The notes under the pieces were generated by a model. That model did no database searches, was not told where the DNA came from, and worked only from the letters and a program-made list of their open reading frames with translations. From a virus (Duplodnaviria; Heunggongvirae; Uroviricota; Caudoviricetes), in the IMG/VR virus record IMGVR_UViG_2706794662_000007: DNA of 64,000 nt, one strand, 5' to 3'. Shown here in pieces: positions 9,613-10,454 of the stretch. The position numbers and the translations under genes are program-made. Every line of letters starts with the position of its first letter. Within the stretch, counting starts at the first letter, position 1.

Positions 9613-10134
9613 TCACTCTCCTTTGATGCGAATGCCTGCTGCAATGCTGTTTATGATGCTGTCAGTGCATGGAGTAGAAAGCTGGGCATCTCCAGCAATT
9701 TTCATGACCTCAACATCCGCATATCGAATACCGAGGTGTATCAGACCGGCTATACCTGACTTAAGTCGAACATTTTCCATAAACAGATCTTTTTCCCGCT
9801 GTTTAGCGGCTTCCAACTCCATCGACAATTTTTCCAACTGCTCTTTATGCTTCTTGTATTCCTGATACGCGTGCCAAGACTGACCTTTGCGCACACTATC
9901 AGTGATATCAGCAACCTGCTCCGGTGTTAGCGTGGTCAGTGGCTGTGCTGGAAAAATCATCACTTTCCCGGCATCCCAATCAAAACCCGCCTGAATTGAC
10001 TGAACCTCAACTGATGGTGTTGAACCGATGCGACCAGGCGAATGAACAACGATCGTTACATCCATATCGCGACGATGGCTGTGGTTGTTGGACAAAATAC
10101 GATTCACCAACTCAGAAAATTTGGAAAATTTCAT
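9613..10134 (-). CDS. hypothetical phage protein
   Basis: [10 protein letters not shown] start; C-terminus AAGIRIKGE shared with gene 10456..10986 because of a repeated junction sequence. Confidence 0.5.
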
Positions 10135-10454
10135 GCTGATCCCTCTTTCTCTCCCCGGATAATTCTGTTGCACACATCCACACACTCGTCGCAGATGAAA
10201 ACGGCGTCCCCAGCAATTAACTTTTTGACGGCGTACTGGGATTTGTTGCAGAAGCTGCAACAAAGTGTTCGCCTGACTGATAAGGATGGAGCGCCAGATG
10301 TCAGCCGCTCCATATCGTTCTTGCGACGCAATATCACACGGCTGAACTCAACCAGTTTCTCCGGGGATATCTCCTCCTCCGTAGCAAGCGCCTCTAATCG
10401 TTCGAGTATGTGGAAGGCTTTTTTCTGGGTAATTGCAGAATGCGATGTGGTCAT
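10131..10454 (-). CDS. small protein with ClpX-type N-terminal C4 zinc-binding domain (no ATPase domain)
   Basis: [36 protein letters not shown] aligns with the ClpX zinc-binding domain as recalled; 107 aa. Confidence 0.6.

Follow-up and report, generated by a model that had tools for sequence, protein, structure and literature searches.

ClpXP governs the stability of sigma-S, UmuD', LexA fragments, FtsZ and antitoxins, as well as the phage proteins lambda-O, MuA, the Mu repressor and P1 Phd. The zinc-binding domain (ZBD) at the N-terminus of ClpX has a hydrophobic pocket around F16 and I46, which published mutagenesis identifies as the site where lambda-O, trigger factor, SspB and RssB bind, and lambda-O degradation requires the domain (PMC7804408). 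An adaptor-docking loop, AGPSVY in Escherichia coli, has also been defined on it (PMC7647994). When purified ClpX ZBD is supplied in trans, it inhibits ClpXP's RssB-mediated breakdown of sigma-S and cross-links to RssB (PMC7226468, Fig. 1d). Phages are known to modulate the AAA+ proteases of their hosts, one example being the ClpCP adaptor-like protein of phage SPO1 (PMC6873191). Here we describe a phage gene that encodes a ClpX-type ZBD on its own protein. It lies on the minus strand at positions 10131..10454 of a 64,000-nucleotide stretch of Caudoviricetes DNA (IMG/VR record IMGVR_UViG_2706794662_000007; the whole stretch is called the window below), and its 107-residue product may be a decoy for partners of the host protease.

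The identity of the ZBD is confirmed far beyond chance. Residues 65-100 match the Pfam family zf-C4_ClpX (PF06689) at 57.1 bits (E=1.7e-15), where the gathering cut-off is 27 bits, and the same model matches every one of the 35 relatives in our family alignment. In a phmmer search of the PDB, residues 62-102 align with residues 10-50 of E. coli ClpX (2ds5/1ovx) at E=1e-14 and about 70% identity. The four cysteines are spaced C-x2-C-x18-C-x2-C as in ClpX; C66, C69, C88 and C91, the predicted zinc ligands, correspond to ClpX C14, C17, C36 and C39 and are invariant (35/35). We delimit the domain as residues 64-102 (10149..10265, minus strand). The AlphaFold model of this part, a prediction and not a solved structure, superposes on the crystal ZBDs 2ds5, 2ds6 and 2ds8 within 0.4-0.6 Å over 38 residues at 71% identity. 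The phage domain would be expected to bind zinc and to form homodimers. There is no AAA+ module: the NCBIfam ClpX equivalog models NF003745 and TIGR00382 match only at profile positions 4-48 and score 41.9 and 39.7 bits, far below their cut-offs of 359 and 371, since no other part of ClpX is there. The original prediction, made from the sequence alone, of a near-canonical ClpX ZBD lacking the motor is thus borne out, in the profile search it called for as well as in the cysteine spacing.

Translation is assigned to the ATG at 10454, the start also used in RefSeq WP_000213528.1 (PHROG 6797), with a Shine-Dalgarno sequence, AAGGAG, seen by inspection at 10461..10466 (minus strand) and a 6-nt spacer. 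An in-frame ATG at 10496, which would add 14 residues (121 in all), lies inside the preceding gene without a Shine-Dalgarno sequence and was rejected. The stop of the upstream gene (TGA, 10456-10458) stands 1 nt before the ATG (TGA-G-ATG), and the ATG of the downstream gene overlaps the stop (ATGA), so the gene is translationally coupled on both sides. RefSeq names the product "ClpX C4-type zinc finger protein", and the domain naming is hence not new. Older GenBank records, such as phage D6 gp034 and phage P88 gp19, label the family "carboxylate--amine ligase", a misannotation backed by no profile. A literature search that included this name found no characterisation of stand-alone or phage ClpX-ZBD proteins.

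The ZBD does not stand alone in the protein. Residues 1-52 (10299..10454, minus strand) form an N-terminal domain that AlphaFold, given the alignment, predicts as a two-helix hairpin (helices 10-26 and 31-52) with a predicted local distance difference test score (pLDDT) of 90-96. Across the alignment, residues 10-52 are conserved as well as the ZBD, with K12, R19, E27 and R43 nearly invariant. Between this domain and the ZBD lies a flexible linker (residues 53-63; 10266..10298, minus strand) of low pLDDT, whose length and sequence vary among subfamilies. The predicted template modelling score for the whole protein is 0.40, which points to two domains without a fixed orientation to each other. 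When a profile of the N-terminal domain only was searched against 5.8 billion proteins, the full-length matches (about 100-120 residues) all carried a ZBD too, and the remaining matches were shorter and look like fragments of such proteins. This is thus an obligate two-domain family. The original prediction had treated the protein as an isolated copy of the ZBD; the presence of the ZBD and the absence of a motor hold, but residues 1-60, a second conserved domain with its linker, had been overlooked. Any model of the protein's function must account for this domain. We also considered a likeness to DksA/TraR, which combine a coiled-coil hairpin with an acidic tip and a C4 finger, and dropped it: the finger is unambiguously of the ClpX type and the helices are short.

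How much of the functional surface of the ClpX ZBD is present? At the position of ClpX F16, 34 of the 35 family members have F. At the position of I46, 21 members have I, 12 have V, and one each has L and A; position I47 is I or L in all 35. By these residues, the family keeps the general peptide pocket. In the P88, Salmonella and Yersinia subfamilies, the adaptor-docking loop is also identical or nearly so to that of E. coli, reading GPSVY or GP(D)GVY.

These similarities do not stem from a recent copy of the host gene. Compared with the ZBD codons of clpX from E. coli MG1655, the phage ZBDs share 70-78% identity at the protein level but only 63-66% at the DNA level, and synonymous differences are saturated (proportion of synonymous differences, pS, 0.84-0.98). 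Between the window-type and the P88-type ZBD, the ratio of nonsynonymous to synonymous divergence (dN/dS) is about 0.2. Saturated synonymous sites beside such protein identity indicate an old gene, acquired long ago and kept ClpX-like by purifying selection, and since the identity persists at this low dN/dS, the ClpX-like sequence is being actively maintained. A sensitive blastn search linked the gene to clpX in none of the E. coli genomes searched. Recent capture from host clpX was accordingly rejected, as there is no similarity at the DNA level and synonymous sites are saturated.

The window is part of a phage-plasmid of the SSU5/pHCM2-like group (about 108 kb), and the 3-kb stretch around the gene matches Shigella sonnei plasmids and "Escherichia phage CMS-2020a" at 100% identity and the E. 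coli O104:H4 plasmid p09EL50 at 99.9%. Full-length relatives were confined to temperate elements of Escherichia, Shigella, Salmonella and Yersinia, and fall into about four subfamilies with 36-50% mutual identity. They sit on phage-plasmids of the SSU5-like (107-111 kb) and P1/D6-like (89-95 kb) groups and in P88-like prophages of the P2 family; in these prophages the gene comes after gpA-ParM-ParR in the early region. The ParM/ParR partition pair lies directly upstream of the ZBD gene in these prophages (phage P88, L091, 8856-10131; also L085, L086 and L089), so all three carrier types are phages with plasmid-maintenance functions. Hundreds of records contain an intact copy. A DNA-level match was found in 220 of 5426 complete E. 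coli genomes (about 4%), split roughly evenly between chromosomes and plasmids. Among plasmid records, 128 match, 94 of them with at least 80% protein coverage, and 120 of the 128 are predicted to be non-mobilizable. In GTDB species-representative genomes, a pattern scan for the N-terminal domain found no match; a scan of the same genomes with the full-length alignment was swamped by canonical clpX.

What would such a protein do in the host? The reading we favor, at a probability of roughly 40%, is that it is a decoy, probably dimeric, that titrates adaptors or substrates docking on the ClpX ZBD. Temperate phages and phage-plasmids would express the gene from an accessory or early operon. The C-terminal ZBD would present a hydrophobic peptide pocket, as the N-domain of ClpX does, and would compete with ClpX for docking clients of the SspB, RssB, UmuD and lambda-O/MuA types. 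ZBD-dependent proteolysis or remodelling by ClpXP would then be selectively slowed, leaving intact the degradation of pore-recognised (ssrA-type) substrates. The helical N-terminal domain, which is ribbon-helix-helix (RHH)-like, could be a second dimerisation interface that raises valency and makes up for the low (micromolar) affinity that one ZBD dimer has. Inhibition by the ZBD in trans (PMC7226468), together with the need for the ZBD in lambda-O degradation (PMC7804408), makes the decoy the best-supported reading, and the interpretation is plausible by analogy with this biochemical precedent. Since inhibition in vitro took micromolar ZBD, a second dimerising domain would be a sensible addition. 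A factor with a host target would be expected to move as this gene does, among three carrier types as an autonomous unit with changing neighbors. We infer that the protein would bind a host adaptor or substrate, that this would alter ClpXP activity and that some protein would benefit. The further idea, that this is a natural multivalent mimic of the ClpX docking domain that re-programmes ClpXP selectivity without shutting the protease down, is tentative and on balance doubtful.

Several points weigh against a decoy. In the window protein, the docking loop reads AGDAVF, and across its subfamily AG-[DE]-x-V-[FC]; the position of Y34 is F in that subfamily, and the window allele has Y13C, the sole such change among the 35 sequences. 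With the pocket kept and the loop changed, adaptor specificity in this subfamily may differ from that of the host, judging from these residues. Inhibition in trans needed 5-20 µM ZBD against 0.6 µM ClpXP (PMC7226468), so a decoy would require high expression or avidity. A plain decoy also leaves the obligatory, conserved N-terminal domain unexplained. We found neither experimental nor co-evolutionary support for any interaction. In addition, no common ClpXP-sensitive phage protein can be named across the three carrier types; a UmuD'-like gene, present in the window, is absent from P88. The original prediction had the protein competing with host ClpX and thereby protecting a phage or plasmid protein. 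The in-trans precedent and the conserved F16/I46 pocket speak for the first part, while GDAV in place of GPSV, and an N-terminal domain that is superfluous for a simple decoy, speak against it; the second part found no support, as no protected protein could be identified.

One alternative is a DNA-binding protein. In this case, the RHH-like N-terminal domain would bind DNA as a dimer and the ZBD would serve as a zinc-stabilised dimer or tetramer module with no link to ClpXP, perhaps comparable to the C-terminal coiled coil of Mnt. We consider such a small transcription regulator unlikely. Likeness of the N-terminal domain to RHH folds is weak, with all scores below significance, and searches of its sequence gave nothing significant in Pfam at E<=10 or in a PDB profile search. 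An RHH fold begins with a strand in which hydrophobic residues alternate with polar or basic ones that read the DNA, and the subfamilies vary here: the Yersinia type has a good candidate (KTLKLS), but the sequence is HSAIT in the window type and only MQHID or MQPID in those of P88 and Salmonella. The monomer AlphaFold model predicts no N-terminal strand. If the ZBD were a mere dimerisation module on an RHH regulator, the finding would be an ordinary one.

A second alternative gives the N-terminal domain a partner of its own. The protein would be an adaptor or anti-adaptor, whose N-terminal domain binds one phage or host protein while the ZBD docks on ClpX to deliver that protein, or else shields it; docking might involve mixed dimers between its ZBD and those of ClpX subunits, or contact with adaptors already bound to ClpX. 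The conservation of the N-terminal domain at the level of the ZBD, and its occurrence only together with a ZBD, argue for a role in specificity. The flexible linker recalls those of tethering adaptors, and the chimeric relatives P0268 and P0177 show that N-terminal domains and ZBDs are swapped. Set against this, no conserved neighboring gene offers itself as the partner, and no precedent is known for a ZBD as an adaptor. Wojtyra and colleagues reportedly found in 2003 that free ZBD dimers are very stable, so exchange into assembled ClpX hexamers would be unlikely. We judge an adaptor role to be distinctly unlikely.

On the model of T4 PinA and T7 Gp4.5, which inhibit Lon, the protein might instead be an anti-defense factor that blocks ClpXP-triggered abortive infection by toxin-antitoxin systems, sparing the antitoxin. 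Degrons of the ssrA-like kind are recognised by the pore of ClpX and are not known to require the ZBD. In the E. coli defense system CmdTAC, ClpXP degradation of the antitoxin is indeed the trigger, but the degron of CmdA is a C-terminal Ala-Ala (bioRxiv 10.1101/2024.02.24.581848), which a ZBD decoy should not block. The gene does lie among phage accessory genes, yet PADLOC gave no defense-system match for the ZBD protein or for four neighboring proteins, and no other link to defense emerged. In essence this is one form of the decoy model, and taken separately we consider it very improbable. Hardly credible at all is a decaying, functionless fragment of a captured clpX: although only the first ~40 ClpX residues are represented, intact copies occur in hundreds of records and four diverged subfamilies, with a conserved N-terminal domain, a dN/dS of about 0.2, saturated synonymous sites relative to clpX, a strong Shine-Dalgarno sequence and coupling on both sides, so the conservation data refute this reading within the limits of sequence analysis.

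The genes around the ZBD gene appear to be exchanged piecemeal. Upstream in the same operon is a gene for an Ead/Ea22-like protein of 176 residues (10456..10986, minus strand; PF13935, E=7.6e-24), and downstream is a gene for a 173-residue protein (9613..10134, minus strand; PHROG 6026/368). Neighbors differ among the SSU5-like, D6 and P88-like contexts, and only Ead/Ea22-like genes recur nearby, probably through common cassette junctions. A pairing of the toxin-antitoxin kind with a conserved partner gene was rejected, as the flanking genes change among carriers. Comparison of repeats revealed a gene-junction repeat of 30-40 nt at 8926-8971, 9314-9345, 9597-9642 and 10440-10485 (minus strand), which spans the end of one open reading frame (...AAGIRIKGE*), the Shine-Dalgarno sequence and the next start (MTT...). 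These repeats are probably recombination joints at which accessory-cassette genes are shuffled. The chimeric relatives fit such shuffling: P0177 joins an Ea22-like N-terminus to a ZBD, and P0268 joins a window-type N-terminal domain to a P88-type ZBD. Altogether, the changing neighbors, the junction repeats and the chimeras indicate an autonomous, shuffled accessory module.

The operon to which the ZBD gene belongs, on the minus strand, probably starts near a repeat at ~11.8 kb and ends at a terminator-like hairpin at 6716..6740 (minus strand). The repeat is a 64-nt direct repeat, 86% identical between 6678-6741 and 11814-11877, which contains a GC-rich hairpin (GGCCACAACTAGTGGCC) and scores as terminator-like. 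About 3.5 kb from the ZBD gene, at 6193-6582 (minus strand), lies a gene for a UmuD'-like S24 peptidase of 129 residues. Its product begins GFPSPAADY, the site at which UmuD is cleaved to UmuD', and thus looks like a pre-processed UmuD'/HumD-like protein. UmuD and UmuD' are ClpXP substrates tethered to the ClpX ZBD. As a general protected substrate, this peptidase was rejected, for the ZBD gene of P88 is not accompanied by any S24 gene.

Other features of the window were noted in passing. The p09EL50 annotation places two host-like genes here, metG (methionine-tRNA ligase; ~2870-4900, minus strand), which is broken by a masked run of N, and apbC (iron-sulfur carrier; 5055-6155, plus strand). 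Four tRNA genes (Ser-TGA, Thr-TGT, Tyr-GTA and Asn-GTT) are clustered at 57689-58512 on the minus strand. Seven masked runs of 250-329 N occur, at 4263-4591, 6780-7032, 9353-9602, 13174-13428, 32187-32449, 42918-43175 and 61635-61884. None overlaps the ZBD gene; the run at 9353-9602 covers a small gene (264 nt, hypothetical in p09EL50) two genes downstream of it.

If the decoy reading is right, sigma-S, UmuD'-type proteins or replication initiators would be stabilised, for example, and the protein could serve as a selective tool that blocks adaptor- or ZBD-dependent substrates while sparing those of the ssrA type. The ZBD-only and tandem-ZBD proteins that abound in genomes and metagenomes would also gain a functional lead and a hypothesis that can be tested. 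A search with the ZBD returned 9745 clusters (50% identity) at E<=1e-3, canonical ClpX included; among the best 150 of these, nearly all are short proteins other than ClpX, often with two to four ZBDs in tandem. A large and varied group of short proteins from bacteria and metagenomes (P0121-P0267) carries one to four tandem ClpX-type ZBDs and no AAA+ module, so the class extends well beyond phages. Our literature search found no paper that characterises any stand-alone or tandem ZBD protein.

How, then, does the phage protein compare with what is already described? Relative to E. coli ClpX, its ZBD belongs to the same Pfam family, has the same C4 spacing, about 70% identity and a model root-mean-square deviation of 0.5 Å, and keeps F16 and a hydrophobic residue at position 46. 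In contrast to ClpX, the ZBD is C-terminal and not N-terminal, no AAA+ module follows it and a conserved helical domain precedes it; the loop reads GDAV instead of GPSV, with Y34F and, in the window allele, Y13C. ZBDs outside ClpX are found elsewhere too. Several phages encode ZBD-only proteins, including PHROG 12435, a 65-residue "Clp protease" of Pseudomonas phage PP9W2 and a protein of Caulobacter phage Cr30, and zf-C4_ClpX is fused to cyanobacterial sigma factors (PMC11119718), but none of these has the N-terminal domain of the present family. The known domain in a phage-borne, two-domain architecture with this N-terminal partner is the new part. Next to RHH proteins (CopG, Arc, and the N-terminal domains of ParD, MazE and TacA), the phage N-terminal domain scores below significance and its ribbon strand is short or degenerate; where RHH antitoxins carry a toxin-binding tail, the phage protein carries a ZBD.

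A further comparison is with the recombinant, isolated ClpX ZBD (PMC7226468), which likewise lacks a motor. That ZBD is a laboratory construct that binds RssB, whereas the phage protein comes from a natural gene under selection and has an extra domain. The small accessory proteins IraD, IraM, IraP, PinA, Gp4.5 and the SPO1 protein (PMC6873191) re-programme regulated proteolysis by binding an adaptor or a protease. These anti-adaptors and phage protease modulators have no kinship in sequence or fold with the ZBD protein, and none of them copies the protease's own docking domain. If the decoy reading holds, the ZBD protein would be the first viral decoy that copies the recognition domain of an AAA+ protease, and with it a new kind of phage strategy.
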